Shown in pieces: positions 5,352-55,980 of a stretch of DNA of 64,000 bases. The first letter of the stretch is position 1. Every line of letters starts with the position of its first letter. This DNA comes from an uncultured Clostridia bacterium (GTDB lineage: Bacteria > Bacillota > Clostridia > Oscillospirales > Acutalibacteraceae), in contig CALWVR010000027.1 in assembly GCA_944385105.1 (NCBI GenBank), positions 96,249-160,248 of the forward strand. The letters are read 5' to 3'. A program made the translations under genes and the position numbers. Under the pieces are notes generated by a model, which made no database searches, was not told the origin of the DNA, and saw nothing but the letters and a program-made list of their open reading frames with translations.

Positions 5352-5380
5352 TTGACAATCATAAAATATAATGTTACAAT
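5352..5380 (+). promoter_or_regulatory. SigmaA-type promoter of the Nif11-peptide export locus
   Basis: TTGACA (5352-5357), a 17-nt spacer, then TACAAT (5375-5380). A leader of about 130 nt with two hairpins follows. Confidence 0.6.
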
Positions 5381-5513: not shown

Positions 5514-6662
5514 ATGGAGAGGAAGATGAAAAGATTAATAGCTTTAATATTAATGATGACATTCTGTGCAGCTTTTCTTGCAGGCTGCAGTAATTCAGAA
5601 AGTACAGTTTGGAATCCCCTGTCTAATGGAGGGACGCTTAATATCGCTATTTTAGGGTCAGATGAGGAATTTGAAACAAGAACAGACTTTATGGCTGGAG
5701 TTGACCTAGCTATAGAAGACTTAGCAAATAAAGGCGTAAAAGTATCTTATACTAAGTTTAGCGATGCAGAAAATTATGACCAAGCAGTAACCAATGCTAA
5801 GAACGTTATAAATGATGAGCAGTATATATTAGCTATAACCTTACAGTCTGAAGAAGTTGTAGATACAATTTCTAAATTATTTAATGATGCGAACAAGCCC
5901 CTTATAGTGGCAAATACTTGTGAAGAAAATAATAAAAGCCAAGATTATAAATATGTTTTAAATGGTCTTATTACAGGTGAACAAGCAGGAGAGGCTTTAG
6001 GAAATTATGCTATTAGCAATAATTTTAACAGTTTGGCAGCTATACACTCAGCATCAGAACGTAATGTTGCAATAGTAGAGGGAATTGAGAATTCAGTTTC
6101 TAAAAATGCAAATACACTGTTAGTAGATGCGTTTCTACCCGAGGGAGACAAGGCATTTTTAGATGTAATAGAAAGATGGCAAATATTAGGAATTGACGCA
6201 ATTGTAGTAGCGCTTGAAGATATAGATTTAGCAAGTAATTTTATAAAACTTTTAAAGGAAAGAGCTCCTGAAATTTTGGTAATGGGAGATTACACTTTTA
6301 ATAACCAAAAATATCTTGATAGTTATGGATCATATTTAGAAGGAATGATATTATCAGCATCATATCCAGTGGATTCAAATGAAAAATTAGAACAATTTTA
6401 TGCTCAATATGAACCTAAAATTACTTATGTGGATATCACTAGTATAACGGCTCAAGCTTATGATTTTGTGAATATGATAGTTGAAAAATTAGATGGAACA
6501 TCAAATTCAGAAGAATTTATAAATAATATGAAATCTTCAGAAGGATATGAAGGAATAACAGGAGTTAGATTTGATGAAAATGGAAATTTAAATAAAGAAT
6601 CTGATTATTGGATTATTAAAGATAGTAAAGTTTATAGGTTAGATAACAATAATATTGCATAA
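5514..6662 (+). CDS. Lipoprotein with type-1 periplasmic-binding-protein fold (Leu/Ile/Val-binding-like)
   Basis: Signal peptide with lipobox LAGC. The alternating beta-alpha pattern is typical of PBP1/ABC substrate-binding proteins. The true start may be the ATG at 5526 (MKRLIAL). Confidence 0.6.
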   Translation: MERKMKRLIALILMMTFCAAFLAGCSNSESTVWNPLSNGGTLNIAILGSDEEFETRTDFMAGVDLAIEDLANKGVKVSYTKFSDAENYDQAVTNAKNVINDEQYILAITLQSEEVVDTISKLFNDANKPLIVANTCEENNKSQDYKYVLNGLITGEQAGEALGNYAISNNFNSLAAIHSASERNVAIVEGIENSVSKNANTLLVDAFLPEGDKAFLDVIERWQILGIDAIVVALEDIDLASNFIKLLKERAPEILVMGDYTFNNQKYLDSYGSYLEGMILSASYPVDSNEKLEQFYAQYEPKITYVDITSITAQAYDFVNMIVEKLDGTSNSEEFINNMKSSEGYEGITGVRFDENGNLNKESDYWIIKDSKVYRLDNNNIA

Positions 6663-7618: not shown

Positions 7619-9796
7619 ATGGCTTTTATGGGAGAAAAAATAAAAAATGTGCCGGTAATTCTCCAGATGGAGGCGCTAGAATGTGGTGCAGCTTCTCTTG
7701 CTATGATACTTGCAAACTTTGGTAAATATGTTCCACTTGAAAGATTGCGTATAGAATGTGGTGTTTCAAGGGATGGTTGTAATGCAAAAAATATTTTAGC
7801 AGCAGCCAGGCATAATGGACTTAAAGCAAAGGGATTTTCTTATAAAAATATAAATACATTAAAAGAGAGAGTAACACTTCCTGCGATAATTCACTGGAAT
7901 TTTAACCACTTTTTAGTATTACGTGGTTTTAAAGGAGAAAAGGCTTATTTAGCCGATCCGGCTTCAGGAAATAGAACAGTAAGCTTAGAAGAATTTGAAA
8001 AGTCATTTACAGGTATTGTTATGACTTTTGAACCTACAGAAGAGTTCGTAGCAGACGGACAAAAGAAAAGCGTTATTAGCTTCTTGCTAAATAGAATGAA
8101 AGGTGCATATATTCCGCTAGCTTTCGTATTACTAGCGAGTCTATTGTTAGCTTTCAGTTCTTCAATTACATCAATATTCTATCAGATATTTACGGATAGT
8201 ATACTGGTTGGTACAAATAGAGATTTTATGACACCATTATTATATGCGATGGGAGCAACTCTTGTAATCACATTTATTTTGTATTCGATGAAGTCAATAT
8301 ATCTTTTAAAGATACAAGGAAAAATGAGTGCAACTTCGGGATCAAAATTTATGTGGCATGTTTTAAGAATGCCTGTAGAGTTTTTCTCACAGCGACTAGT
8401 TGGTGACATTAGTTCAAGACAAAATAGTAACGATACTGTTTCAGAAATAATATGTAAGAAAGTAGCACCAATAGCACTTAATGTGGTTATGATATTTGTT
8501 TATTTAGCTATTTTGCTATTCTATGATTGGGCAATGACGCTTATAGGCGTAGTAGTAGCTATTATAAATGTTATTGTTATAAAACTTATTTCTAAACAGA
8601 ATGAGAATGACAACAAAGCACTCTCAAGAGATGGAGGTAAATTACAAGGAACCATTGCTGCGGGTGTAAGTATGATAGAAACAATAAAGTCAAGTGGGTG
8701 TGAAGCAGGATATTTCCAAAAAATAATAGGTTATCAAACTAAGTATAATAACTCACTTGAAAGGATAAGAGAGAGAAATGCATATGTAAACCAAATACCG
8801 TCTTTATTACAAAGTCTTGCAAATGCCGCAATATTATTTATAGGAGTTTACAATATATTAAAGGGTAACTTTACTATTGGTACATTGCAGGCTTTCCAAG
8901 GATTTATGTCGTCATTTTTGACACCTGTAAATGACTTGGTAGGTATAGGACAACAGATACAATCATCTAGTGGTGATATAGAGAAAATAGAGGATGTTTT
9001 AAATTATAAACCTGATGTTTATATAGACTTCTCAGAGACTAGTAAACCAGATTTTAATGAAAAAGTATATAAAAAGCTAGATGGTAACGTAGAGATACAA
9101 AACCTTTCATTCTCATATAGTCCTCTTGCTGAGAATTTAATTGAAGACTTTAGTCTATCTGTTAGTAAGGGACAAATGGTTGCATTAGTAGGAGGAAGTG
9201 GAAGCGGAAAATCTACTATAGCAAAACTTATAGCAGGTTTATATGAACCTACTAAGGGGAAGATTTTGTTTGACGGAAAAGAAATGAAAGACATAGATAG
9301 AAATGTATTTAGAAGCTCATTAGCCATGGTAAACCAAGAAATAACAATGTTCCAAGATACGATAAGAAATAACATTACAATGTGGGACGAGACTATAGGA
9401 GATGAAACACTTAAATTGGCTTGCCAGGACGCATGCATACATGAGGATATACTTCTAAGAGAACAAGGCTATGACTATGAATTGATAGAAAATGGTAAAG
9501 ACTTTTCAGGAGGACAACGTCAAAGATTTGAAATAGCAAGGTCATTTGTTATGGAGCCTACGATAATGTTATTAGATGAAGCAACGAGTGCCCTTGATCC
9601 AACAACAGAAAAGAAAGTTATGGATGCTGTAAAACGTAGGGGAATAACATGCTTTGTTGTTGCACATAGACTGTCTACTATTAGAGATGCAGATGAAATT
9701 ATAATGCTTGAAAAGGGAAAAGTAGTAGAAAGAGGAACTCATGAGCAATTAATTGAGTTAAACGGAAAATATGCAAACTTAGTAAAGAGTGAATAG
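7619..9796 (+). CDS. ABC exporter with N-terminal C39 double-glycine peptidase domain (peptidase/permease/ATPase)
   Basis: C39 catalytic Cys context QMEALECGAASLAMIL and His context IIHWNFNHFLVL. It has 6 TM segments, Walker A GGSGSGKST, signature FSGGQRQR and Walker B MLLDEATSALD. Confidence 0.92.
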   Translation: MAFMGEKIKNVPVILQMEALECGAASLAMILANFGKYVPLERLRIECGVSRDGCNAKNILAAARHNGLKAKGFSYKNINTLKERVTLPAIIHWNFNHFLVLRGFKGEKAYLADPASGNRTVSLEEFEKSFTGIVMTFEPTEEFVADGQKKSVISFLLNRMKGAYIPLAFVLLASLLLAFSSSITSIFYQIFTDSILVGTNRDFMTPLLYAMGATLVITFILYSMKSIYLLKIQGKMSATSGSKFMWHVLRMPVEFFSQRLVGDISSRQNSNDTVSEIICKKVAPIALNVVMIFVYLAILLFYDWAMTLIGVVVAIINVIVIKLISKQNENDNKALSRDGGKLQGTIAAGVSMIETIKSSGCEAGYFQKIIGYQTKYNNSLERIRERNAYVNQIPSLLQSLANAAILFIGVYNILKGNFTIGTLQAFQGFMSSFLTPVNDLVGIGQQIQSSSGDIEKIEDVLNYKPDVYIDFSETSKPDFNEKVYKKLDGNVEIQNLSFSYSPLAENLIEDFSLSVSKGQMVALVGGSGSGKSTIAKLIAGLYEPTKGKILFDGKEMKDIDRNVFRSSLAMVNQEITMFQDTIRNNITMWDETIGDETLKLACQDACIHEDILLREQGYDYELIENGKDFSGGQRQRFEIARSFVMEPTIMLLDEATSALDPTTEKKVMDAVKRRGITCFVVAHRLSTIRDADEIIMLEKGKVVERGTHEQLIELNGKYANLVKSE

Positions 9797-12024: not shown

Positions 12025-12327
12025 ATGAGTAATGAGTTGGAAAAATTCTTTTTAAGGATTATAGAGGATCCGGATTTCAGAGACATTTTTTGTTCGGCTA
12101 CATCAGTAGAGGAGGGCTATAAATTAGCCCTACCATACATTGATGGCGTCTCTTTTGAAGAATTTAAAAAAGGATTACATGATATACAGAATAAGTCAAA
12201 GCATAAACAAAAAATATCTAATGAAAAATTGAAGAAGGTTTTAGGTGGAACTGATTTATTAGATAATGCTTTGAAAATATTATCTAGCTATTCATCAAAG
12301 GAAGAGTTTTTATCTCAAGTGCATTGA
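12025..12327 (+). CDS. Divergent Nif11-like-leader precursor; cleavage motif KKVLGG; core TDLLDNALKILSSYSSKEEFLSQVH
   Basis: RBS AAGGAGGTG. The N-terminal segment F..II.DPDFRD resembles a Nif11 domain, followed by a GG motif and a 25-aa core predicted to be helical. Confidence 0.65.
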   Translation: MSNELEKFFLRIIEDPDFRDIFCSATSVEEGYKLALPYIDGVSFEEFKKGLHDIQNKSKHKQKISNEKLKKVLGGTDLLDNALKILSSYSSKEEFLSQVH

Positions 12328-12343: not shown

Positions 12344-12664
12344 ATGGAGAAGTTTTTAAATTTATTAGTAGAAGATGAGAAAATTAGAGAGCAATTTTTG
12401 CTACAAAGGACTCCTGAAGGCGCGTACAGAATAGCAAAACCCTACCTTGACGATATGACAAGTGATGAATTTAAAGACAGTTTAGCAGGCCTTATTGAAT
12501 CATTTGAATCTGATGATGACTCTAAGAAAATAGTTGACGATAAAAAATTGGGAGATGTTTCAGGAGGAAAAGCAGCGGAATATATAATAAATAACATGGA
12601 AGATTATATTAATAAAGATTTAAAAGAAGCTTTATCGGTAACATTTGATTTTGCAAAACAGTAG
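12344..12664 (+). CDS. Divergent Nif11-like-leader precursor; cleavage motif GDVSGG; core KAAEYIINNMEDYINKDLKEALSVTFDFAKQ
   Basis: RBS AAGAGG. Nif11-like N-terminus, acidic linker, GG motif and a 31-aa helical-looking core. Confidence 0.65.
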   Translation: MEKFLNLLVEDEKIREQFLLQRTPEGAYRIAKPYLDDMTSDEFKDSLAGLIESFESDDDSKKIVDDKKLGDVSGGKAAEYIINNMEDYINKDLKEALSVTFDFAKQ

Positions 12665-12680: not shown

Positions 12681-12872
12681 ATGGAAGGCATTACAGAGCT
12701 TAAAGAAAAGCTTGAAGAGGATTCTAAATTTAGGGCTTTATTCTTGGAAATTGAGCATTTAGATGATGCCGTGGCTATTGCAAGAGAAAATGGATATGAT
12801 ATTTCTATAGATGATTTAGAAGAAGACGTAGAGTTATTTGATAACTTAATTGATATAAGTACAGGTAGCTAG
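12681..12872 (+). CDS. Stand-alone Nif11-like domain protein, 63 aa, no double-glycine motif and no core
   Basis: The real start is ATG 12681 after AAAGGAGGA; the track ORF from 12645 overlaps the previous gene. AVAIARENGYDISIDDLEED matches the leader consensus, but the protein ends ...DISTGS. Confidence 0.6.
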   Translation: MEGITELKEKLEEDSKFRALFLEIEHLDDAVAIARENGYDISIDDLEEDVELFDNLIDISTGS

Positions 12873-12958: not shown

Positions 12959-13204
12959 TTGGATAATATGGAGGAGTTTAAGAAAAGGATGGAAGATCCA
13001 GATTTTGTAAAACTATTTAGGAATGCAAACACAAATGAAGAAATAATAGAAATAGCAAGGCAGCAAGGATATAATATTGATGAAGAAATGGTGGAAAAAT
13101 TTAAGCTGTCTGAAGATATGCTTGAAGAAATTGCGGGTGGGAGTAAGGATACCTATAGAGCAGGGAAGGATCTTAATATAATTACTACAATTTCTTATAA
13201 ATAG
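12959..13204 (+). CDS. Nif11-like-leader precursor; leader ends EEIAGG; core SKDTYRAGKDLNIITTISYK
   Basis: GGAGGTG RBS. Start is TTG 12959 or ATG 12968. The leader IIEIARQQGYNIDEEMV...LSEDMLEEIAGG is homologous to the downstream array. Confidence 0.8.
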   Translation: MDNMEEFKKRMEDPDFVKLFRNANTNEEIIEIARQQGYNIDEEMVEKFKLSEDMLEEIAGGSKDTYRAGKDLNIITTISYK

Positions 13205-13284
13205 TTAAAAGATTGCCTTTTAGGATTAATATGATGTAGCTAGAAGTGTTAATAAGTTTAAAAAATAAATCATACTTGAAAATT

Positions 13285-13448
13285 TCCAGTGGTATTTAGT
13301 AATGCAGAAACAGATGAGGCAGTAATATAACAAGGGTGTTAATAACTAAAAGATTTTTAAAGTATTTGAAATAACATGTGATACACTCAATTTTGTGGCT
13401 GTAGAAAAACGTGTTACAGCCAGTGAAGATAAATTTATGTGTAACTAA
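13285..13448 (+). pseudogene. Decayed copy of a Nif11-like precursor gene
   Basis: The DNA aligns by eye to the paralog leaders: TATTTAGTAATGCAGAAACAGATGAGG, then TTTGAAATAACATGTGATACACTCAATTTTGTGGCTGTAGAAAAA versus TTTGAAATGACGGATGAAATGCTCGAATCCGTGGCTGGAGG. It has in-frame stops, no start codon or RBS, and GG is replaced by VE. Confidence 0.7.
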
Positions 13449-13502
13449 AAGCTAATTACAAAGAGTATAAAATATTTTTATAAATTTAAGGAGGAAAATA
13501 AA

Positions 13503-13766
13503 ATGAAAAATGCTAAAGAATTTGAAAAAAGAATGCATGATGAGGAATTTGCAAAGCTATTTAGTAATGCAGAGACAAACGAAGATATAATAAGGATAGC
13601 ACACGAGCAGGGTTATGAAATAAGTAAAGAGGATATTAAGCATTTTAAAATGACAGATGAAATGCTAGAATCCGTAGCCGGAGGAAAACATGACACAGCG
13701 GGTAGAGATATAAACAGACATACTTATATAGAGGTATATGCAAATCCCAATATAACTACTCACTAA
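13503..13766 (+). CDS. Nif11-like-leader precursor (N-type leader); core KHDTAGRDINRHTYIEVYANPNITTH
   Basis: RBS AAGGAGGAAAATAAAATG. The 61-aa leader ends MTDEMLESVAGG. Confidence 0.9.
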   Translation: MKNAKEFEKRMHDEEFAKLFSNAETNEDIIRIAHEQGYEISKEDIKHFKMTDEMLESVAGGKHDTAGRDINRHTYIEVYANPNITTH

Positions 13767-13816
13767 TCATAAAGATGGGAAGGTATTTTCGTTAACTTAT
13801 AAGGAGGGGGAAGTAA

Positions 13817-14086
13817 ATGAAAAGTGCTAAAGAATTTGAAGAAAGAATGCATGATGAGGAATTTGCAAAGCTATTTAGTGATGCAGAGACCAACGAAGAT
13901 ATAATAAGGATAGCACATGAGCAGGGTTATGAAATAGGCAAAGAGGATATTAAGCATTTTAAAATGACAGATGAAATGCTAGAATCCGTAGCCGGAGGAA
14001 AATATGATACAGCAGGTAGAGATATGACAACAAGTACTTATGTAAATATATATGCAAGTCCATATATAACTACGCACTCATCATAA
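13817..14086 (+). CDS. Nif11-like-leader precursor (N-type leader); core KYDTAGRDMTTSTYVNIYASPYITTHSS
   Basis: RBS AAGGAGGGGG. The leader is near-identical to 13503. Confidence 0.9.
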   Translation: MKSAKEFEERMHDEEFAKLFSDAETNEDIIRIAHEQGYEIGKEDIKHFKMTDEMLESVAGGKYDTAGRDMTTSTYVNIYASPYITTHSS

Positions 14087-14130
14087 AGATGGTGAAGTAT
14101 TTTAGTTAATCTATAAGGAGGAGAAAATAA

Positions 14131-14394
14131 ATGAAAGGTGCTAAAGAATTTGAGCAAAGAATGAATGACAAGGAATTCGCAAAGCTATTTAGTAATGCAG
14201 AGACAAACGAAGATATAATAAGGATAGCACATGAGCAGGGTTATGAAATAGGCAAAGAGGATATTAAGAATTTTAAAATGACAGATGAAATGCTAGAATC
14301 CGTAGCCGGAGGAAAATATGATAAAGCAGGTAGAGACATAAACAGAATTACTTATATAGAGTTTGGTATAAATCCAAATATAAAGTCAAAGTAA
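14131..14394 (+). CDS. Nif11-like-leader precursor (N-type leader); core KYDKAGRDINRITYIEFGINPNIKSK
   Basis: RBS AAGGAGGAG. Conserved leader ending SVAGG. Confidence 0.9.
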   Translation: MKGAKEFEQRMNDKEFAKLFSNAETNEDIIRIAHEQGYEIGKEDIKNFKMTDEMLESVAGGKYDKAGRDINRITYIEFGINPNIKSK

Positions 14395-14440
14395 AGATGC
14401 TAATGAATTTTTATTGATTTGTAACAGGAGGAAAAATAAA

Positions 14441-14680
14441 ATGAAGAATGCTAAAGAATTTAAAGAAAGAATGCATGATGAGGAGTTTGCAAAGCTATTT
14501 AGCAATGCAGAAACAGATGAGGAGATAATAAAGATAGCCGCAGAGCAGGGGTATGAGATAACAAAAGAGGACATACAAGACTTTGAGATGACGGACGAAA
14601 TGCTCGAATCTGTGGCAGGGGGCAAAGGAGAAACAACTTATAATGCATACGGAAATATGACAATTTACGTAGATCAATAG
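14441..14680 (+). CDS. Nif11-like-leader precursor (D-type leader); core KGETTYNAYGNMTIYVDQ
   Basis: True start is ATG 14441 after AGGAGGAAAAATAAA; the track ORF begins upstream at 14414. Leader is NAETDEEIIKIAAEQGYEITKEDIQDFEMTDEMLESVAGG. Confidence 0.9.
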   Translation: MKNAKEFKERMHDEEFAKLFSNAETDEEIIKIAAEQGYEITKEDIQDFEMTDEMLESVAGGKGETTYNAYGNMTIYVDQ

Positions 14681-14828
14681 AGTAGATTGGTATTTAAGCC
14701 AAAAAAGATTTAATATTATTATAAATAGAATAATATTAAATTTAGAAAGGACCCTTGTGTAAAGAATGTTGAAAGAAAACGACAGCTTTTAAAAATGTTA
14801 ATTATAAGTTTTGGAGGTGAAAAATAAA

Positions 14829-15068
14829 ATGAAAAATGCTAAAGAATTTAAAGAAAGAATGCATGAAGAGGAATTTGCAAAGCTATTTAGCAATGCAGAA
14901 ACAGATGAGGATATAATAAGGATAGCTGCAGAACAGGGCTATGAGATAACAAAAGACGATATACAAGACTTTGAGATGACGGACGAAATGCTCGAATCCG
15001 TGGCAGGCGGAAAAGGAGAAACAACTTATACTGCATACGGAAATATGACAATTTACGTAGATCAATAG
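14829..15068 (+). CDS. Nif11-like-leader precursor (D-type leader); core KGETTYTAYGNMTIYVDQ
   Basis: True start is ATG 14829 after GGAGGTGAAAAATAAA. The core differs from 14441 by one residue (N to T). Confidence 0.9.
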   Translation: MKNAKEFKERMHEEEFAKLFSNAETDEDIIRIAAEQGYEITKDDIQDFEMTDEMLESVAGGKGETTYTAYGNMTIYVDQ

Positions 15069-15245
15069 GATAGATTGGTGTTTAAGTTAAAAAATGCAAT
15101 ATTATTATAAATAGAATAATATTGAATTTAAGGTCAACTTTTATACAAATAGGAAGTAATGTCTTTTAGAACAAATAAAAGTCTTGCAAGTATTGTAAGA
15201 AAGAGGTAGAGGTGTAATAATTATAAGATTAAGAAGGGAAATAAA

Positions 15246-15494
15246 ATGAAAAGTGCTGAAGAATTTAAAGAAAGAATGCATGAAGAAGAATTTGCAAAGC
15301 TATTTAGCAATGCAGAAACAGATGAGGAGATAATAAAGATAGCCGCAGAGCAGGGCTATGAGATAACAAAAGAGGATATAGAAAACTTTGAAATGACGGA
15401 TGAAATGCTCGAATCCGTGGCTGGAGGTAAGGGTACTACTATAATATCTGATGGGGATATATATGTAGAGTCATATACGACCGTAATAATATAA
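15246..15494 (+). CDS. Nif11-like-leader precursor (D-type leader); core KGTTIISDGDIYVESYTTVII
   Basis: Conserved leader ending SVAGG. RBS AAGAAGGGAAATAAA. Confidence 0.88.
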   Translation: MKSAEEFKERMHEEEFAKLFSNAETDEEIIKIAAEQGYEITKEDIENFEMTDEMLESVAGGKGTTIISDGDIYVESYTTVII

Positions 15495-15536
15495 AAGTAT
15501 AGTGAAAATTTTTATAAATTTAAGGAGGAAAATAAA

Positions 15537-15803
15537 ATGAAAAATGCTAAAGAATTTAAAGAGAGAATGCATGAAGAGGAATTTGCAAAGCTATTTAGCA
15601 ATGCAGAAACAGATGAGGATATAATAAAGATAGCCGCAGAGCAGGGCTATGAGATAACAAAAGAGGATATACAAAACTTTGAAATGACGGACGAAATGCT
15701 CGAATCCGTGGCTGGCGGAAAAAATGACCATTATGAAGCCGGTGGAAGTATAACTACTAATACCTATACGGATATAGAAATAAGCCCTAACATAGGTTTA
15801 TAA
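15537..15803 (+). CDS. Nif11-like-leader precursor (D-type leader); core KNDHYEAGGSITTNTYTDIEISPNIGL
   Basis: RBS AAGGAGGAAAATAAA and the conserved leader. A second internal GG lies 8 residues after the first. Confidence 0.9.
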   Translation: MKNAKEFKERMHEEEFAKLFSNAETDEDIIKIAAEQGYEITKEDIQNFEMTDEMLESVAGGKNDHYEAGGSITTNTYTDIEISPNIGL

Positions 15804-15845
15804 AATATTAGTAAAAAGCTTTATAAAATTAAGGAGGAAAATAAA

Positions 15846-16118
15846 ATGAAGAATGCTAAAGAATTTAAAGAAAGAATGCATGAAGAGGAATTTGCAAAAC
15901 TATTTAGCAATGCAGAAACAGATGAGGATATAATAAAGATAGCCGCAGAGCAGGGCTATGAGATAACAAAAGAGGATATACAAAACTTTGAAATGACGGA
16001 CGAAATGCTCGAATCCGTGGCTGGAGGGAAAAATGACGATTATAGTGCCGGTGGAAGTATAACTACTAATGACTATACGAATATAGAAATAAATCCGACT
16101 ATAAAAAAAGGTCTATAA
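15846..16118 (+). CDS. Nif11-like-leader precursor (D-type leader); core KNDDYSAGGSITTNDYTNIEINPTIKKGL
   Basis: The leader DNA differs from 15537 by only a handful of substitutions, while the core is diverged. Confidence 0.9.
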   Translation: MKNAKEFKERMHEEEFAKLFSNAETDEDIIKIAAEQGYEITKEDIQNFEMTDEMLESVAGGKNDDYSAGGSITTNDYTNIEINPTIKKGL

Positions 16119-16152
16119 TGAAAAATTTTGAAAAATTAAGGAGGAAAATAAA

Positions 16153-16419
16153 ATGAAAAATGCTAAAGAATTTAAAGAAAGAATGAATGAAGAGGAATTT
16201 GCAAAGCTATTTAGCAATGCAGAAACAGATGAGGATATAATAAGGATAGCCGCAGAACAGGGCTATGAGATAACAAAAGAGGATATACAAAACTTTGAAA
16301 TGACGGACGAAATGCTCGAATCCGTGGCTGGAGGGAAAGGTGACGATTATAGTGCCGGTGGAGATATAACCACTACCTCAAGTACGACGGTACAAATAAG
16401 TCCTAACATAGGTTTATAA
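16153..16419 (+). CDS. Nif11-like-leader precursor (D-type leader); core KGDDYSAGGDITTTSSTTVQISPNIGL
   Basis: RBS AAGGAGGAAAATAAA. Conserved leader ending SVAGG. Confidence 0.9.
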   Translation: MKNAKEFKERMNEEEFAKLFSNAETDEDIIRIAAEQGYEITKEDIQNFEMTDEMLESVAGGKGDDYSAGGDITTTSSTTVQISPNIGL

Positions 16420-16460
16420 AATAGCAGTAGGAAATTTTTAAAAGTAAGGAGAAGGATAAA

Positions 16461-16751
16461 GTGAAGAATGCTAAGGAATTTAAAGAAAGAATGCATGATG
16501 AGGAATTTGCAAAGCTATTTAGCAATGCAGAAACAGATGAGGAGATAATAAAGATAGCCGCAGAGCAGGGCTATGAGATAACAAAAGAGGATGTACAAGA
16601 CTTTGAAATGACGGATGAAATGCTCGAATCTGTGGCAGGGGGAAAAGGACTGTTTGGCAACAAAACTGATGAAATTCATGCAGAAGGAGAAGTAAACAGT
16701 ACTTCGAGTTTTAGTATAAATGGTGTAACTTTATTTACAAAGAAAAATTGA
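16461..16751 (+). CDS. Nif11-like-leader precursor (D-type leader); core KGLFGNKTDEIHAEGEVNSTSSFSINGVTLFTKKN
   Basis: GTG start after AAGGAGAAGG. Conserved leader and the longest core, which is unrelated to the others. Confidence 0.85.
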   Translation: MKNAKEFKERMHDEEFAKLFSNAETDEEIIKIAAEQGYEITKEDVQDFEMTDEMLESVAGGKGLFGNKTDEIHAEGEVNSTSSFSINGVTLFTKKN

Positions 16752-16839: not shown

Positions 16840-17721
16840 TTGGGAGAAAATAAAAGAGAAAAGGAACTTCTCAAATCACTTGGGGCAGATGACAAGGTTT
16901 GTGAGGAGCTTTTAGAATACACTAAAAATAGATTTAATGTAGATGGATACGTGGAACAAGAAATAGAAGATGAACCATTTATCCAAATTTGGCGGAGAAT
17001 AGCTGATAGAAGCAAGAATGAACCTATAGAAGAGGTTATGAATGATGAAATACCTCATAGCGATAGTCCTATTAAACTAAAACACCCTGAACTAGTTAAT
17101 ATAGAAATATATAATTCTATAGCGGGAAATATACCTGTTATATATGCAAGGGATGAAGAGGACTTCTATGAAATAGTAAAGCAAATTATATATAAAGGTA
17201 AGGAAGCAAAAAATCTTGAGAAAACGGGTGCAAGTTTTGCTTATGGGAAAAACAATAAGTTTATTATTCTTTCAAATAAGCCATATAGTAATATTCAAGC
17301 GGAAAGTATAGGACTTGAAGAAGACCAGTGGAGAAGTTTTTCAGTTATTATAAGAAGAGAACATGAATGTACACACTATTTTACTAAGAGGTTTTTAGGG
17401 TCTTCTCAAAATAATATGCATGATGAGCTTATTGCTGACTTTGCAGGGATTACTTGCGCAATAGGGAAATTTAATGCTAAATGGTTTTTGATGGGCATGG
17501 GGATAGATAAGTATCCGCATGCTCAAGAAGATGGACGTTTTCCAGTTTATACGACTAGTTTATCAAATGAGGCTAAAGACATATTAAAGAGGATTATGGT
17601 AAAGGTAGCGTATAACGTTGAAAAATGGTCAGAATTAGAAGAGACTAAAATGATGAGTCGTAATGAAAGAGTACTGTTCTTGTGTAAAAATAGTATATTA
17701 GATCTTTATAAAATGTATTAG
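16840..17721 (+). CDS. Hypothetical 293-aa protein with zincin-like HExxH motif (REHECTHYF...MHDE); last gene of the peptide locus
   Basis: TTG start after GAGAGGTGAAG. It has HECTH followed 14 residues later by HDE, and no signal peptide or TM helix. I do not recognise the family. Confidence 0.6.
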   Translation: MGENKREKELLKSLGADDKVCEELLEYTKNRFNVDGYVEQEIEDEPFIQIWRRIADRSKNEPIEEVMNDEIPHSDSPIKLKHPELVNIEIYNSIAGNIPVIYARDEEDFYEIVKQIIYKGKEAKNLEKTGASFAYGKNNKFIILSNKPYSNIQAESIGLEEDQWRSFSVIIRREHECTHYFTKRFLGSSQNNMHDELIADFAGITCAIGKFNAKWFLMGMGIDKYPHAQEDGRFPVYTTSLSNEAKDILKRIMVKVAYNVEKWSELEETKMMSRNERVLFLCKNSILDLYKMY

Positions 17722-17860: not shown

Positions 17861-18574
17861 ATGGAGGTGCCAAGATTGGATAATTCAAACAATAACTTGC
17901 CCACAAATCCAAGTACTTTAAACCAACAAATGGACTTAGCAAGGATATATGGAATGAATATTGCTGATAATAACCTACCTACGGAAGGAACTATTGATGA
18001 CTATTCCCTGACACCAGTTCCTTCTTTAAATCAAGATTGTGCTAATTGTGCAGCAGAGAGCTTAAGTGAAGTATCGTTGCAGTTTCCACAATTAGAGCCA
18101 AATGATATGAACATAACAATGCCTAGAGCAGGTCAATCTAGTGAAACACAGAGAATAATGCAACAAAATAGGATAACAACTCCTCAAAGACAAATTGAAC
18201 AAACTTTACCTATAACAAATCCAACGACATCTAACTCAACGGGTAGCTCGAATACAACAACTAGCTCTGAAATGACGAGTAGCCCAATGACTATAAGTCA
18301 ACCAAATATGTTGTTTAATGAAAACGTAAATGGAAGTAATATAATGAATTTAGTTAATCCATGTGGAGACATGAACAATTTTTTAAGAACACAAATAGGA
18401 AAAGTATTGAATGTACAATTTTTATTGGGGACGAATGCGTTAGTAGAGAAAACAGGTGTTTTATTAGGAGTTGGAAGCAATTATATAGTGTTGAGAGATA
18501 GCGAAACTAATGATTTGATTTTATGCAACTTTGATGATATAAAATTTATACGCTTTGAAAATAATACACAGTAA
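17861..18574 (+). CDS. Spore coat protein GerQ-like (conserved C-terminal domain, Asn/Thr/Ser/Gln-rich N-terminus)
   Basis: The C-terminus GKVLNVQFLLGTNALVEKTGVLLGVGSNYIVLRDSETNDLILCNFDDIKFIRF resembles the GerQ/YwdL family pattern. The start may be TTG 17876, because ATGGAGGTG itself looks like the RBS. Confidence 0.45.
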   Translation: MEVPRLDNSNNNLPTNPSTLNQQMDLARIYGMNIADNNLPTEGTIDDYSLTPVPSLNQDCANCAAESLSEVSLQFPQLEPNDMNITMPRAGQSSETQRIMQQNRITTPQRQIEQTLPITNPTTSNSTGSSNTTTSSEMTSSPMTISQPNMLFNENVNGSNIMNLVNPCGDMNNFLRTQIGKVLNVQFLLGTNALVEKTGVLLGVGSNYIVLRDSETNDLILCNFDDIKFIRFENNTQ

Positions 18575-18753: not shown

Positions 18754-19038
18754 GTGATTTTTATGAAATTTATCAACATAGGTTTTGGCAATATGGTTTC
18801 TGTTTCAAGGATAGTTACTATAGTAAGTCCAGACTCAGCCCCTATTAAACGTTTGATAACTGATACAAGGGACAAAAATGAATTAATTGATGCCACTTGT
18901 GGAAGGAGAACAAGATCTGTAATAATTATGGATAGTGGCCATATAGTACTCTCGGCTATACAGCCTGAAACTGTTGCTAATAGACTAAAGGGAGAAGAAT
19001 CTTTAGCTGAGGAGGAGTCTTACTTATATGAACAATAA
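18754..19038 (+). CDS. remA: RemA (DUF370) extracellular-matrix/biofilm regulatory protein
   Basis: [32 protein letters not shown]...[25 protein letters not shown] is the canonical RemA/YlzA sequence. The likely start is ATG 18763. Confidence 0.9.
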
Positions 19039-23755: not shown

Positions 23756-24538
23756 ATGAATATAATAAGTATGTATATTTATGTTTTTTTTGCAATTTTT
23801 GTAGTGGTTATGTTATTAGTACTGCTACCAATTTACATATTTTTTTTTATTAGGGAATCATTAATTTTATCAAAGAATTCAAAGATAGATAATTCGGAAA
23901 ATTTAACGGGATATGAAGTAGCCCGGAAGATGTTATTAGGTGAAGGTATAAGGGATTTTAATATACGTGAATATTTAGGCTATCATTTATGGCCATCTAT
24001 AGACATAAACTTTTCTGGAAAGTATAACAAAAAGTATTTTAGAGCATCTTGTATTCTTCGAAAAAATGAAATAAGATTATCAGAAGATGTCTATTCAGGC
24101 AAGAATATATCAGCAGTTGCGATATCGGCTTATGAGGCTTGTCTTTTGATACAATATAATCAGGGGAATTTATTAGCAAAAATGCGGAATTTAATATACA
24201 AAATAGAATTTATAGGGGCGCTTTTATTTATTCCACTAGTACTTGTAGAATTTATTGTTATGAGACAGCAAAATCAGGTTTTTAGTCTTATAATAATAAT
24301 GTTTTTGAATATAATAATAGCTTTTGATATTTTAGCATTTGCTCTAGAGATAGCTTATAACCGTCGAAACATTAGTATACTGGAACGAAGTGAAGTGTTA
24401 TATGGAGAAGACCTTAAAAGGGCAAAGAAGGTAATAAATGCTGCATCATATTCATACCTTATATCAATGTTTGTAGAGATTATATATCTACTAATAAAAA
24501 TATCTTCCATAATAGATAAATTTAAAGAAAACAAATGA
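23756..24538 (+). CDS. Membrane protein, degenerate paralog of the YugP-type zinc metallopeptidase (HExxH lost)
   Basis: It aligns with the next gene (LTGYEVARKML / IRLSEDVYSGKNISAVAISAYEACLLIQ), but HEAGH is replaced by YEACL and an insertion disrupts the DHYDP region. Confidence 0.7.
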   Translation: MNIISMYIYVFFAIFVVVMLLVLLPIYIFFFIRESLILSKNSKIDNSENLTGYEVARKMLLGEGIRDFNIREYLGYHLWPSIDINFSGKYNKKYFRASCILRKNEIRLSEDVYSGKNISAVAISAYEACLLIQYNQGNLLAKMRNLIYKIEFIGALLFIPLVLVEFIVMRQQNQVFSLIIIMFLNIIIAFDILAFALEIAYNRRNISILERSEVLYGEDLKRAKKVINAASYSYLISMFVEIIYLLIKISSIIDKFKENK

Positions 24539-24656: not shown

Positions 24657-25367
24657 ATGATGTATGGATTTTATTATTATGATTACACATACTTTTTATT
24701 TATGCTACCGGCATTCTTAATTGCTATGTATGCACAAATTAAAGTACAGTATACTTTTTCAAAGTATTCGACAATATACAATACAAGAGGATTAACAGGA
24801 GCACAGGCAGCACAACGAGTACTAATGAATAATAATGTTACGAATGTAGCAATTGAACGGGTTTCAGGACATCTTAGTGATCACTATGATCCTAGTACTA
24901 ATGTAATAAGGCTATCGGATGACGTTTATTCAAGTACATCAGTGGCTGCAGCTGGAGTAGCTGCCCATGAAGCTGGTCATGCGGTACAGCAAAATCAGGG
25001 ATATTTACCTATTAAAATAAGAAGTGCAATGGTTCCAGTTACAAAATTAGGCTCGTTTTTGTCAATGCCAATTATACTTTTGGGCTTACTACTACCAGTA
25101 CAGTATAGCTTCGTTGTTAATATAGGAATAATATTATTTAGCATGATAGTGGTTTTTGAACTTATAACGCTACCGGTAGAGATTAATGCTAGTCGTCGAG
25201 CAATTGACACACTAGAACAAACAGATACGTTATATGGTGAAGAGCTTGATGGAGCGAAGGAAGTATTAAGGGCAGCAGCATTTACTTACCTTGCATCAGT
25301 ATTTTCATCAGCCATGTCATTATTAAGAATATTGCTGATTACAGGGAATAGAAGAGGAAGAGATTAA
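24657..25367 (+). CDS. Membrane zinc metallopeptidase, YugP/Zn_peptidase_2 family
   Basis: LSDHYDP, VAAHEAGHAVQ, and C-terminal TM helices with EINASRRA. Confidence 0.85.
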   Translation: MMYGFYYYDYTYFLFMLPAFLIAMYAQIKVQYTFSKYSTIYNTRGLTGAQAAQRVLMNNNVTNVAIERVSGHLSDHYDPSTNVIRLSDDVYSSTSVAAAGVAAHEAGHAVQQNQGYLPIKIRSAMVPVTKLGSFLSMPIILLGLLLPVQYSFVVNIGIILFSMIVVFELITLPVEINASRRAIDTLEQTDTLYGEELDGAKEVLRAAAFTYLASVFSSAMSLLRILLITGNRRGRD

Positions 25368-26702: not shown

Positions 26703-27746
26703 TTGAATTTAATTGATATTAAGTCTAAGTCCTTAGAGGAAGTTATAGAAGAGTTTAAAAATATAGGAGAACCTAAATTTAGAGCTAAACAGGTTTATGC
26801 TTGGCTTACTAAGGGGACCATGAGTTTTAATGACATGTCAGACTTATCTTTGAAGCTTAGAGATAAATTATCAAGTTTTTATTACATAGCTAATGCAAAA
26901 ATAGAGCGAAAGTTAATTTCTAAGATAGATGGTACTATAAAGTATTTATTTAAACTGAATGATGGGGAATTTATAGAATCAGTATTAATGAGATATCATC
27001 ATGGTTATACTATTTGCATATCTAGTCAGGTAGGCTGTAAAATGGGCTGTAAGTTTTGCGCGACAGGAAAAAGTGGATTTTCAAGAAACTTAACTGCATC
27101 TGAGATGATTTCACAAATACAATCAGCGCAAATGGACAATAATATAAGAATATCCAATGTAGTACTTATGGGTATGGGCGAGCCTTTAGACAACTATGAT
27201 AATGTTATTAAGTTTTTAAAACTTGTATCATCAGAGAATGGTTTAAATATAGGAATGAGACATATTTCTCTATCTACTTGTGGACTAGTTGATAAGATTT
27301 ATGAGTTATCAAAAGAAAAGTTACAACTTACACTCTCAGTTTCACTTCATGCCCCTAACGATGAAATAAGAAATAAGTTAATGCCTATAAATAATAGATT
27401 TAATGTGGACGAGCTGATAAAAGCTTGTAGATATTATGTGGAAAAAACCGGTAGACGAATATCCTTTGAATATGCTATGATATCACTAGTAAATGATAGC
27501 GATATGTGTGCAAATGAGTTAGTTAAGAGATTATCAAATATGTTATGTCATGTAAATTTAATACCTGTAAATGATTCAGGAAATTTAAAAAGTGGATATA
27601 AAAAGAGCAGTAAGGATCGTTTAGAAAGGTTTAGTAAAATATTATTGGAAAATGGAATAAACGTTACTGTAAGGAGAACGTTGGGTTCTGACATAAATGC
27701 TTCATGCGGACAGCTGAGAAGAACCATACAGGATATGGAGGGATAA
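26703..27746 (+). CDS. rlmN: 23S rRNA/tRNA (adenine2503-C2)-methyltransferase, radical SAM
   Basis: CKMGCKFCATG (CxxxCxxC), MGMGEPLDN, and C-terminal SCGQL. Conserved position. Confidence 0.93.
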   Translation: MNLIDIKSKSLEEVIEEFKNIGEPKFRAKQVYAWLTKGTMSFNDMSDLSLKLRDKLSSFYYIANAKIERKLISKIDGTIKYLFKLNDGEFIESVLMRYHHGYTICISSQVGCKMGCKFCATGKSGFSRNLTASEMISQIQSAQMDNNIRISNVVLMGMGEPLDNYDNVIKFLKLVSSENGLNIGMRHISLSTCGLVDKIYELSKEKLQLTLSVSLHAPNDEIRNKLMPINNRFNVDELIKACRYYVEKTGRRISFEYAMISLVNDSDMCANELVKRLSNMLCHVNLIPVNDSGNLKSGYKKSSKDRLERFSKILLENGINVTVRRTLGSDINASCGQLRRTIQDMEG

Positions 27747-31458: not shown

Positions 31459-32081
31459 GGGTCTTGATAATAGGAGCAGCACCAATAGGAAAAAAGGAAA
31501 AGTTATCTAAGATAATAAAGGACATAGACTATGTTATTTGTGCCGATGGAGGATTTAATAATGCAAAAAGTCTTGGAATAAGACCTGATTTAGTAATGGG
31601 GGATATGGACTCAATAAAAGGGGCTTTACCAAAGAAGATTAATTTTATTAAATTTCCGGTAGAAAAAGATGACACAGATATGATGCTTTGCGTAAAAAAA
31701 GCACTTGAAATGGGAGCGGAAGAAATTATAATTATTGGAGGTACAGGTGGAGATAGGATTGATCATACGATAGCAAATATTTGTATTTTAAAGTTCCTTG
31801 ATGAGATAAATATATCGCATAGATTAATTAGTGACACTCAGGAGCTGTTAATATTGGGAGAAGGAAAATCGCTTAAGATTAAAAATCTTGAGGGGCATAC
31901 TATATCTGTATTTCCTTTTGGAAGTGATCTTTGTAAAGTTTGGTATGATGGTCTTTATTATAAAATGAGTGGAGATAATATATATATAAATAGCCCTGTT
32001 GGCATAAGCAACAGGGTTATTTCAAGAAATTCAATAGTTAAAATTCTAAAAGGTAGTGCTCTTCTTATTATATCTAAATAA
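31440..32081 (+). CDS. thiN: Thiamine pyrophosphokinase
   Basis: GDMDS, DDTDM and GGTGGDRIDH motifs. The probable start is ATG 31455, forming an ATGA overlap with the rsgA stop. Confidence 0.85.
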   Translation: MGCKAMRVLIIGAAPIGKKEKLSKIIKDIDYVICADGGFNNAKSLGIRPDLVMGDMDSIKGALPKKINFIKFPVEKDDTDMMLCVKKALEMGAEEIIIIGGTGGDRIDHTIANICILKFLDEINISHRLISDTQELLILGEGKSLKIKNLEGHTISVFPFGSDLCKVWYDGLYYKMSGDNIYINSPVGISNRVISRNSIVKILKGSALLIISK

Positions 32082-32997
32082 TAACTATCGACTGTTTTTG
32101 AAGTTTGGAAAATCTATCTTGTACTAGTTCTTTATTAAATCCTCTTACTCCATTACTAAGAGGATCATTAAAATAATATTTTTCATTGTCATATCCAACT
32201 AATACTAAGCAATGTTCTCCTTTTTTCCATGTAAATTTCTCATCTTTACCGTTAATGTACCATGATGTACCATTAGTAATATCCTTCATTTCAGAGCTTG
32301 CCCAAATTAGGACTGGATTATTTTTACTAATATACTTTGAAATCAAATCTTCAATATCAGTGCCAGTAGTGTTTATAATATTCAAAGAATTTGATGTGGC
32401 TTTTTTCATAGCTTTGATAATAACAGGAGCATAGCATCCATAACCATTATAACTTCTAGGGTCACCAATAAAGGAGTTGTTTGGACTATCAGCGACTAAT
32501 TTGTTGTTAATCATAGTAGGTGCTGCAGATTTATTTAGAAAATTATTGATAAAGTCATCAAGGGATATTTTGATACCTTTATAATTTAAAAGCATAACAG
32601 CACTAGCGCTTTCACATCCAGTAGGGAACCCCATAGACTTTTGATTTATGTGACTTATGTTTATTATAAATTTGCCAGTTTGATTTTCCTTTTTAAAGTA
32701 TTTGTTGACAAAGTTATTATTTTGCTGGTTAAGGATGTTATGCTTTTGATGATTATGTAAATTTTCAAAGATGCTTTTTGACGTGTTTTTTAAAATATTA
32801 CTGTCAATAGTTTCTTTTTTATCTTGAGCCATGTTTGTAGTACTGTTAGGGACTAAGGGATTTGTACCAGTCTTTGTGATTTTATATGATATAGCGTCAA
32901 TAGGGAGTCTTAGCCCTATTGAAGTAAATAGTGTTACTGTTAAGATAATCAATTTTTTAGTTAATTCTTTTTTATTTATGTTAAATACCTTTTTCAT
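32074..32997 (-). CDS. Membrane-anchored or secreted C39-like cysteine peptidase (Peptidase_C39_2 / YvpB-like)
   Basis: N-terminal TM/signal anchor, Asn/Gln-rich linker, Cys context GFPTGCESASAVML and His context GEHCLVLVGYD...NDP. Confidence 0.65.
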   Translation of the reverse strand: MKKVFNINKKELTKKLIILTVTLFTSIGLRLPIDAISYKITKTGTNPLVPNSTTNMAQDKKETIDSNILKNTSKSIFENLHNHQKHNILNQQNNNFVNKYFKKENQTGKFIINISHINQKSMGFPTGCESASAVMLLNYKGIKISLDDFINNFLNKSAAPTMINNKLVADSPNNSFIGDPRSYNGYGCYAPVIIKAMKKATSNSLNIINTTGTDIEDLISKYISKNNPVLIWASSEMKDITNGTSWYINGKDEKFTWKKGEHCLVLVGYDNEKYYFNDPLSNGVRGFNKELVQDRFSKLQKQSIVII

Positions 32998-42848: not shown

Positions 42849-43082
42849 GTAGTTTTGTATCCTTGAAATACAAAAGATATCTTGCTATTTAATTGACTAG
42901 GATTTATTAGTTGATCACAAGGGTGTGCAATATATATATATTATCTAAAAAAAGAAAAATAAAAGTATATATATTTGCAGAAAAAGAGTCATATTTCTTA
43001 TAAGTAAAAATATTTGATTTGATTTATGATAAACTTAGTTTTGTCAATTCGACAAAAATTAAAATTTTTAGGAGAGTTCATT

Positions 43083-55686: not shown

Positions 55687-55980
55687 ATGACATTTCAAGA
55701 ATTTATAGAAAAAAAACCTAACTTTATAAAGGAAGCAAAAAAATGTACTAGCGAAGAAGAATTTACTAATGTAGCTGAGGCATATGGAGTTAAATTTGGG
55801 AAAGACTCCTTTGATAAGGCGTATGAAATTATAGTTGGAGGTAAAGGAAAAACTAAACTTTCAGAAGATGCGTTAGATTCAGTTTCTGGTGGGACTAACA
55901 TAGAGGTAACTCAAGTTGATCTTGGTGGAATGTTTAAGGGAAATAATAATGAAAGTACTTTTATATTTAATATTAAATAG
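55687..55980 (+). CDS. Orphan Nif11-like-leader precursor; leader ends LSEDALDSVSGG; core TNIEVTQVDLGGMFKGNNNESTFIFNIK
   Basis: The 69-aa leader has EEEFTNVAEAYGVKFGKDSFD (Nif11-like) and the LSEDALDSVSGG cleavage motif. The 28-aa core has no Cys and looks beta-strand-prone. Confidence 0.75.
   Translation: MTFQEFIEKKPNFIKEAKKCTSEEEFTNVAEAYGVKFGKDSFDKAYEIIVGGKGKTKLSEDALDSVSGGTNIEVTQVDLGGMFKGNNNESTFIFNIK

Follow-up and report, generated by a model that had tools for sequence, protein, structure and literature searches.

A Nif11-type precursor peptide array with its own exporter and an associated HExxH protein, DUF7005, in an uncultured Clostridia bacterium

The stretch of DNA analyzed here (the "window", 64,000 nt of contig CALWVR010000027.1 from the uncultured Clostridia bacterium assembly GCA_944385105.1) carries on its plus strand, at positions 13503–16751, a tandem array of ten small genes whose products pair a long, conserved leader ending in a double glycine (GG) with a short and variable core (Table 1). 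All ten are intact open reading frames (ORFs) of 79–96 codons, nine starting with ATG and one (16461) with GTG, and an AGGAGG-like ribosome-binding site (RBS) lies 7–8 nt 5' of every one of them. Tandem Repeats Finder splits the region into two arrays, one with a period of 314 (13487–14610) and one with a period of 307–309 (15230–16646). The array had been proposed from the sequence in an earlier annotation of this DNA (the original prediction), and each of its ten genes was recovered on the plus strand at the position given there.

The 61-aa leaders share a mean pairwise amino acid identity of 87.7% (range 77–100%), with 43 of 61 positions invariant, which corresponds to strong conservation if not quite to the "frozen" or "almost invariant" leader first described. 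Two leader subtypes (A and B in Table 1) can be distinguished as proposed, and the leaders of 15537 and 15846, picked out earlier as near-identical, differ at 5 of 183 nt. Past the GG the sequences diverge abruptly, as had been noticed: the nucleotide identity of the ten aligned units is 0.84–0.92 over the 183-nt leader and 0.52–0.61 in the 30-column blocks that follow. The cores are 18–35 aa long, start with Lys in 10/10 cases and contain no Cys, all as previously stated, and no Trp; Thr, Ile, Gly, Tyr and Asn are abundant. The proline-containing tail reported for six cores ([SN]-P-[NYT]-I) is indeed present in 6/10, against 0.04 expected by shuffling. The proposed N-terminal core motif (K-x-D/E-x-x-A-G) holds only approximately, because its register is not the same in the 13503 and 15537 groups. 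A beta-strand-like character of the cores received little backing from Chou-Fasman beta means (~1.0–1.16, i.e., weak), and an AlphaFold2 model of precursor 13503, in which the leader is helical (predicted local distance difference test, pLDDT, ~70–83) and the core (residues 60–87) has pLDDT <50, speaks neither for nor against it.

All ten leaders end in M-T-D-E-M-L-E-S-V-A-G-G, which places Met at −12, Leu at −7, Val at −4 and Gly at −2 and −1 relative to the cleavage site. Against the TIGR03798 model (cut-off 32.3 bits), gene 13503 scores 50.0 bits, ORF 12959–13204 37.4 and ORF 12681 33.3, and the Nif11 domain (PF07862, cut-off 23.8) was matched at 27.7–35.3 bits in six peptide ORFs scanned, including four of the ten array genes (13503, 14441, 15537 and 16461 were put through Pfam individually; the other six have 77–100% leader identity). 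The array and the gene at 12968 (scanned as ORF 12959–13204) are Nif11-type (N11P, TIGR03798) double-glycine precursor peptides. The original prediction was right to read these genes as double-glycine precursors, and recognized neither the Nif11/N11P family nor the adjoining exporter, which assign the array to a type of system known since 2010 (PMC2887384). The leader subfamily of the window is itself rare: a comparison of precursor 15537 with a set of 5.8 billion proteins returned 16 proteins, mostly its own paralogs and a few metagenome contigs, and no named relative among them.

Three cores (15537, 15846 and 16153) contain a second GG at core positions 8–9, which had been noted correctly and taken as a sign of possible dual processing. 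This second site carries Glu at −4 and Asp at −7, and charged residues at these positions block cleavage by LahT, a peptidase of the C39 family (PMC6363468). Dual C39 processing therefore seems unlikely, and by this rule we rejected the second GG as a candidate cleavage site.

Directly upstream of the peptide genes, on the same strand, lie genes for an HlyD-like adaptor, a peptidase-containing ATP-binding cassette (ABC) transporter (PCAT) and a second ABC subunit (ABC2), all scoring over their equivalog cut-offs, and the C39 domain of the PCAT (7619–9796) keeps the catalytic Cys motif LECGAAS. All four hidden Markov models (HMMs) of N11P systems (TIGR03798, TIGR03794, TIGR03796 and TIGR03797) were matched above cut-off. 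A Peripla_BP_6 (periplasmic binding protein, PBP) lipoprotein gene without cognate permease (5514–6662) stands ahead of them, and likewise opens the export operon in many related loci. On the other side of the array, a DUF7005 gene is the last before the housekeeping genes gmk, priA, def and fmt. Consensus matching revealed no plus-strand terminator-like site in or past the peptide genes up to position 19000, the sole plus-strand match (7673–7689) lying inside the PCAT gene. Judging from this layout, the array, the exporter and DUF7005 appear to form one operon. A 237-aa ORF further on (17861–18574, plus strand), which combines a long low-complexity region rich in N, T, S, P and Q with a compact C-terminal domain, was considered as a member of the cluster and rejected, as it has no Pfam or NCBIfam match and is not kept beside DUF7005 elsewhere.

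Table 1. Features of the peptide locus and related elements, by position in the window.
Feature	Position	Strand	Remarks
Promoter-like site TTGACA-17-TACAAT with TG	5352..5380	+	Strong site, by consensus match only; 5' of first operon gene
Peripla_BP_6 lipoprotein, lipobox LAGC	5514..6662	+	First operon gene, conserved in related loci
HlyD-like secretion adaptor (NHLP bacteriocin system), TIGR03794	6699..7583	+	159.2 bits vs. cut-off 156.2
PCAT, ABC exporter with N-terminal C39 peptidase, TIGR03796	7619..9796	+	944 bits vs. cut-off 853
Second ABC permease/ATPase, without peptidase domain, TIGR03797	9809..11995	+	735 bits vs. cut-off 709
GG-leader peptide, core TDLLDNALKILSSYSSKEEFLSQVH	12025..12327	+	Orthologs in slot 1 after ABC2 of related loci
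GG-leader peptide, core KAAEYIINNMEDYINKDLKEALSVTFDFAKQ	12344..12664	+	Slot 2 in related loci
Nif11-domain ORF, 63 aa, ends ...DISTGS, without GG or core	12681..12872	+	TIGR03798 33.3 bits
Eleventh Nif11 precursor, core SKDTYRAGKDLNIITTISYK	12968..13204	+	Core motif D-T-x-x-A-G-x-D in common
Decayed leader fragment	13281..13335	+	83% identity over 47 nt to repeat unit
Precursor 1, subtype A, core KHDTAGRDINRHTYIEVYANPNITTH	13503..13766	+	TIGR03798 50 bits
Precursor 2, subtype A, core KYDTAGRDMTTSTYVNIYASPYITTHSS	13817..14086	+	Ortholog in L084
Precursor 3, subtype A, core KYDKAGRDINRITYIEFGINPNIKSK	14131..14394	+	
Precursor 4, subtype B, core KGETTYNAYGNMTIYVDQ	14441..14680	+	
Precursor 5, subtype B, core KGETTYTAYGNMTIYVDQ	14829..15068	+	
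Precursor 6, subtype B, core KGTTIISDGDIYVESYTTVII	15246..15494	+	
Precursor 7, subtype B, core KNDHYEAGGSITTNTYTDIEISPNIGL	15537..15803	+	
Precursor 8, subtype B, core KNDDYSAGGSITTNDYTNIEINPTIKKGL	15846..16118	+	
Precursor 9, subtype B, core KGDDYSAGGDITTTSSTTVQISPNIGL	16153..16419	+	
Precursor 10, subtype B, GTG start, core KGLFGNKTDEIHAEGEVNSTSSFSINGVTLFTKKN	16461..16751	+	
DUF7005 (PF22541), 293 aa, cytosolic, predicted metal-dependent hydrolase	16840..17721	+	Last operon gene
Orphan Nif11-like GG precursor, core TNIEVTQVDLGGMFKGNNNESTFIFNIK	55687..55980	+	Found by iterated leader HMM only

Evolutionarily, leaders and cores behave differently, as the original prediction had anticipated; the equal rates in both parts that would have overturned it are not observed. 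Nei-Gojobori counts over all paralog pairs gave proportions of synonymous (pS) and non-synonymous (pN) differences of 0.40 and 0.06 for the leaders (ratio 0.15), and of 0.54 and 0.44 for the cores (ratio 0.81). A related metagenomic array (L084) holds four orthologous cores in the same order as in the window, and comparing orthologs gave ratios (omega) of 0.14 in the leader and 0.48 in the core, which differ at p = 0.007 by Fisher's test, and a pS that is lower in the cores (0.23) than in the leaders (0.46). Two of the ortholog core pairs differ at 5/26 and 8/28 residues, and every core has a recognizable ortholog in a related strain. The term "hypervariable" is hence not supported, these cores being constrained (omega ~0.5) between strains. 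One paralog pair has a core pN above its pS (0.33 vs. 0.22), on counts too tiny for any claim of positive selection. Together these rates suggest that the cores diversify faster than the leaders, yet are conserved enough between strains to be functional.

The uniformity of the leaders had been attributed to homogenization by concerted evolution, an explanation that mostly does not stand. Between subtypes A and B, the leader pS is 0.63 overall and 0.79 in codons 26–61 (near saturation) for a pN of ~0.10, so the leader is kept by purifying selection and its DNA has not been homogenized; a protein that stays constant while its DNA diverges, as these counts indicate, is the opposite of what concerted evolution produces. 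What remains of this explanation are some signs of exchange between leaders and cores. The pS between subtypes is lower (0.36) in leader codons 2–25, orthologous cores have a lower pS than the leaders they follow, and the L084 gene at 352–621 carries a core orthologous to that of 13817 (A-type) behind a B-type leader, which together suggest occasional leader/core recombination among paralogs, over strong selection on the leader.

The array is not alone in the region, and the original prediction, focused on ten genes, passed over an eleventh paralog, two further GG peptides, a leader-only ORF, a decayed copy and an orphan precursor, along with the exporter. Orthologs of the two GG-leader peptides (12025–12327 and 12344–12664), both with acidic and helix-prone cores, take the first two places past ABC2 in most of the related operons; these slot 1 and slot 2 peptides are the most conserved of the system and may have a role distinct from that of the variable peptides. 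The ORF at 12681–12872 may be a copy that was truncated, or else a leader-like protein that stands alone, and the decayed fragment at 13281–13335 sits in the 298-bp gap ahead of the first array gene as the remnant of a lost copy. The orphan precursor (55687–55980) lies 39 kb off the array, between tRNA-Thr/tRNA-Tyr and spoVAD, has no Pfam match at E ≤ 0.001, and may be another substrate of the exporter that serves the array. Distal orphan precursors also occur in two related loci (L008 and L009).

DUF7005, the product of the last gene of the putative operon, is a protein in which neither a signal peptide nor a membrane segment was seen in the sequence. Across 42 homologs (down to 38% identity) residues H175, E176, H179, Y180, D195, E196 and D200 are invariant, and C177 and H194 nearly so. 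The AlphaFold model is confident (pLDDT 95; predicted TM-score, pTM, 0.91) and comprises a beta-sheet (86–145), a long helix with the HExxH motif (161–186) and a helix with the H-D-E motif (192–208). An HExxH helix followed by a helix bearing an acidic ligand is the layout of gluzincins such as thermolysin and the M1 family, and DUF7005 shows this arrangement of the MA clan, its invariant HExxH lying on one helix and the acidic residues that would supply the third ligand on the helix after it. On the basis of this model, DUF7005 is predicted to be a gluzincin-like metal hydrolase. Searching both halves of the protein against Pfam at E ≤ 10 retrieved PF22541 alone; an NCBIfam scan at E ≤ 10 with the window protein and three homologs yielded chance-level matches to unrelated models only, and did not place DUF7005 in the alpha-ketoglutarate (alpha-KG) HExxH beta-hydroxylase family (IPR026337/TIGR04267). 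No paper in the full-text literature searched mentions DUF7005 or PF22541.

DUF7005 homologs (972 in a word-indexed protein search) occur in 448 species-representative genomes. The best 80 of these genomes are mostly Clostridia (Acutalibacteraceae, Oscillospiraceae, Ruminococcus, Lachnospiraceae), and also include some Treponema, Synergistaceae and one Chitinispirillia member. The order PBP-HlyD-PCAT-ABC2, two GG peptides, Nif11 array and DUF7005 is conserved in the closest relatives (at least 59% identity), and among the genomes examined this operon architecture recurs in ~20 species-level Acutalibacteraceae/Oscillospiraceae-like Clostridia. The related arrays encode 2–14 Nif11-leader peptides each, with very different cores in one operon, many of which are syntenic orthologs across species. 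Cores from the other loci are Cys-free in 178 of 236 cases, Lys occupies position +1 after 32% of the xAGG leaders of related arrays (vs. 8% Lys overall), and the [SN]P[NYT][IMV] motif is also found in L016, L018 and L019. In three sister arrays (L001 8037–8360, L005 7395–7724 and L011 8110–8433) some cores contain Q-x-(x)-G-x-G-N-x-A/G-Q-N-like motifs, which may resemble the repeats of curli CsgA.

Across the loci examined, DUF7005 keeps company with GG peptides. In 45 of 83 DUF7005 loci a small GG-type ORF is found no further than 2 kb away on the same strand, the density of such ORFs is 12-fold higher beside DUF7005 than further off (0.51 vs. 0.042 per kb), and once Nif11 peptides and PCAT/ABC2 genes are counted along with GG peptides, 63 of the 83 loci show an association. 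The partner peptides themselves vary widely: Gly/Ala-rich cores together with two YcaO proteins, a radical S-adenosylmethionine (rSAM)/SPASM protein and a methyltransferase in L002, Cys-rich cores with an rSAM protein in L089, Cys-rich cores again in L040 and L053, and a short-leader peptide with a short hydrophilic core and no exporter nearby in L027 and L029. (The clusters of L002, 10001–20846, which is Robinsoniella-like, and of L089, 5009–12438, resemble those of ribosomally made peptides that are modified after translation, or RiPPs, contain Nif11-type precursors, and are flanked by SpoIIE/anti-sigma/STAS partner-switching genes.) Since the partner cores are unrelated and the GG leader is the common factor, a leader-directed role is favored over a core-specific modification, and DUF7005 probably acts on the leader, through turnover of the cleaved 61-aa leader or through an auxiliary cleavage.

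No LanM, YcaO, ATP-grasp or RiPP-type rSAM protein turned up in the ORFs of the 64-kb window that were scanned, which agrees with the original prediction as far as ATP-grasp is concerned; the only rSAM protein is RlmN (26703–27746), with its RlmN_N domain. The known peptide classes can be compared on this basis. Lanthipeptides would call for Cys-containing cores and LanM/LanB/LanC-type domains, none of which is seen, graspetides for an ATP-grasp domain, and proteusins for an rSAM epimerase by the precursors, where RlmN is all that was found. With the unmodified class II bacteriocins the locus shares a GG leader, a PCAT and the lack of a modification enzyme; the cationic, amphiphilic or hydrophobic peptide and the dedicated immunity gene of that class were not found. 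We weighed an asparagine synthetase (AsnB, 35757–37598) as a possible lasso-type cyclase and discarded it, as it has a full glutamine amidotransferase (GATase) domain and lies 19 kb away beside glutamine synthetase. As for the array cores themselves, their net charge ranges from −3 to +3, their isoelectric point is 4.1–4.7 in 6/10, and their grand average of hydropathy (GRAVY) is negative in 9/10, mostly between −0.3 and −1.1.

Our preferred reading, to which we give a probability of roughly 0.72, is that of an N11P array served by its own NHLP/Nif11 exporter, from which cores would be exported as linear or minimally processed peptides, with DUF7005 directed at the leader. It builds on the precursor and exporter families, on gene order and its conservation, on the contrast in selection between leader and core, and on the motif and genomic association of DUF7005. 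With no known class-defining RiPP enzyme in the window, export of linear or minimally processed peptides is the default. The precursors would be translated in the cytosol, and the C-terminal leader helix (M−12, L−7, V−4, G−2, G−1) would dock in the C39 domain of the PCAT, which would cut past Gly61; the PCAT would then export the 18–35 aa core jointly with ABC2 and the HlyD-like adaptor, as a Thr/Ile/Tyr/Asn-rich, neutral to acidic product. DUF7005 would come in either after cleavage, for leader turnover, or as an auxiliary processing step. The array itself grew by tandem duplication; purifying selection holds the leader, since a single protease and exporter have to accept all the paralogs, and the cores are under a weaker, paralog-specific constraint. 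The likeliest role of the secreted peptides would be inter-bacterial competition or signaling in a gut community. An antimicrobial function is possible, although the neutral to acidic, hydrophilic composition of the cores does not support it, and signaling or self-assembly may be alternative roles.

Several points weigh against this interpretation. We infer translation, cleavage, export, lack of modification, the catalysis and substrate of DUF7005 and the role of the peptides from sequence. The DUF7005 profile retrieved nothing from PDB sequences at E ≤ 10, and the best Foldseek match of its model in the PDB had an E-value of 0.62 and a TM-score of 0.28 (the top weak matches were M1 aminopeptidases and anthrax lethal factor, none significant). 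Not every HExxH protein of a RiPP cluster is a hydrolase (PMC12636437). At 20 of the 83 DUF7005 loci neither peptide nor exporter was seen nearby, and in some genomes the gene is an orphan amid housekeeping genes. In charge and hydropathy the array cores are unlike cationic, membrane-active unmodified bacteriocins, and no immunity gene, small membrane-protein gene or regulator was recognized in the operon. Finally, the gene of a modifying enzyme could lie beyond the 64-kb window, as that of ProcM does for the dispersed prochlorosin genes.

The alternative that best withstands the data, unlikely as we hold it to be, is that DUF7005 is a new tailoring enzyme which binds the Nif11/GG leader and modifies the core before export, so that the peptides would form a new RiPP class. 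Possible chemistries include hydrolytic trimming at the [SN]-P-N-I tail, cyclization via Lys1 or Asp/Glu, or another metal-dependent reaction, and one may see their targets in the Lys that opens all ten cores and is enriched at +1 in related arrays, and in the [SN]P[NYT][IMV] motif, which far exceeds its shuffled expectation and recurs in other loci. DUF7005 is moreover the sole non-transport protein conserved in the operon, combines an invariant metal-binding-type motif with a confidently predicted fold that appears novel relative to the PDB, and has a precedent in HExxH proteins that carry out unexpected RiPP chemistry (PMC12636437). Yet the family accompanies wholly unrelated cores (L002, L040, L053, L089, L027 and L029), and its presence in clusters that already have a YcaO or rSAM protein fits a leader-directed or general role better; no ATP-utilizing domain is available for condensation chemistry, and some members are orphans.

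We consider it improbable that some other part of the genome encodes a known maturase (a proteusin-like rSAM epimerase, a glycosyltransferase or an ATP-grasp enzyme) that acts in trans and makes these peptides members of an existing RiPP class. The precedent is that of the dispersed prochlorosin genes served by one ProcM (PMC2887384); the orphan precursor away from the cluster and cores rich in Thr, Ser, Asp and Lys would suit such an enzyme, but Cys-free cores exclude lanthionine, sactionine and thiazole chemistry, the same enzyme-free operon is kept in ~20 related species, and the ORFs scanned in the window include no such enzyme. Least probable by far is that the copies are largely non-functional debris of recent duplication or gene conversion with neutrally drifting cores, for while the paralog core omega (~0.8), the decayed copy and the leader-only ORF could be taken that way, the ten frames are intact with a strong RBS each, the leader omega is ~0.15 despite near-saturated synonymous divergence between subtypes, and four of the cores, their order unchanged, have orthologs in a related strain, with an omega of ~0.5 and core pS below leader pS.

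The conserved-leader, variable-core array is textbook N11P biology, known since 2010 and nameable by current annotation models, and as a genome-mining lead the locus is reasonable while holding no surprise for specialists. The unstudied element is an operon without recognized maturase and with a conserved PBP lipoprotein and an uncharacterized HExxH protein, DUF7005, a combination not found in the literature searched. It shows a Nif11 exporter coupled, in ~20 related gut/rumen Clostridia-like genomes, to 2–14 mostly Cys-free peptides, which are candidates for non-antibiotic roles in gut communities. Should leaders be its substrate, DUF7005 would close a gap in the handling of long, folded leaders by PCATs; should it modify cores, a new RiPP class would be defined; in either case it is a well-defined and cheap target for heterologous expression. 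It is tempting to speculate further, though we would rather bet against it, that DUF7005 is a class-independent, leader-recognizing maturation enzyme of anaerobes (responsible for an as yet unseen metal-dependent modification or cleavage of Cys-free, beta-prone cores, which would make a new RiPP class) or the first dedicated leader-disposal peptidase of PCAT systems, and that the Thr/Asn/Tyr-rich peptides, some with curli-like relatives in sister arrays, form a self-assembling matrix or serve as signals and not as antibiotics.

Elsewhere in the window, two adjoining Zn_peptidase_2 paralogs (putative neutral zinc metallopeptidases; 23756–24538 and 24657–25367, plus strand) occupy the interval from fmt to rsmB. 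Some 15 kb downstream of the array, the minus strand encodes a stand-alone 307-aa Peptidase_C39_2 protein (32074–32997), with no link to the array established. Three ORFs of 397, 457 and 646 aa (43026–44219 and 44678–46051 on the plus strand, 46289–48229 on the minus strand) have no Pfam match at E ≤ 1e-5.

The system most like ours as a whole is that of the N11P/NHLP export loci, which Haft, Basu and Mitchell described in 2010 as combining long leaders of Nif11 origin with a VAGG end, families of many paralogs, and genes of the TIGR03794/03796/03797 set in the same cluster (PMC2887384). The window shares the long leader ending in (V/I)AGG, the large family and the adjacency of HlyD, C39-ABC and ABC genes with these loci (PMC2887384). 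The described examples, however, pair with LanM or a cyclodehydratase and have Cys/Ser/Thr-rich cores, whereas the window cores are Cys-free and no known maturase is seen; the host is a low-GC anaerobic Clostridia-like bacterium, and the PBP lipoprotein and DUF7005 are extra conserved genes.

Among Clostridia, the closest case to have been studied by experiment is found in Lachnospiraceae bacterium C6A11, in the lah cluster, where LahT150 cleaves nine Nif11-leader peptides with diverse cores after the GG (PMC6363468). This peptidase tolerates any P' sequence and recognizes hydrophobic residues at −4, −7 and −12, and an acidic or basic residue at −4 or −7 abolishes its cleavage (PMC6363468). 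LahA1-9/LahT resembles our array as a nine-precursor Nif11 family in a gut or rumen Clostridia member, and its −4/−7/−12 positions are matched here by Val, Leu and Met. Unlike the window array, the lah cluster is a lanthipeptide operon, and its cleavage was measured, while that of the window precursors is predicted from sequence.

The prochlorosins of marine cyanobacteria (ProcA/ProcM), also named in the N11P study (PMC2887384), are the textbook example of such a pattern, with many Nif11-leader paralogs, a conserved leader and highly divergent cores. Their genes are dispersed and one ProcM serves all of them (PMC2887384), in contrast to the tandem array of the window, whose cores are unable to form lanthionines. 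Class II loci of the blp/pln type have in common with the window several GG peptides, one PCAT with an accessory protein, and no modification enzyme. Leaders of this type are ~15–25 aa long, the mature peptides that follow them tend to be cationic and amphiphilic, and immunity genes usually lie nearby together with a two-component regulator, whereas the window leaders are 61 aa and the cores neutral to acidic and hydrophilic. ProcA cores, for their part, contain Cys and are cyclized by ProcM. The GG-proximal motif is common to TIGR01847-type leaders and N11P (PMC2887384).

As for DUF7005, those HExxH enzymes of RiPP clusters that depend on alpha-KG (ChlH, BpmH and PflC/PosC; IPR026337/TIGR04267) were formerly annotated as peptidases (PMC12636437), and they resemble DUF7005 in bringing an HExxH motif to such clusters; by NCBIfam scan, no sequence relation was found. 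The hosts of DUF7005 are mostly gut and rumen anaerobes, where O2-dependent chemistry is unlikely, and the D-E pair on the next helix fits a gluzincin better, which leaves the alpha-KG/Fe oxygenase reading as a formal alternative next to a predicted gluzincin-like hydrolase.

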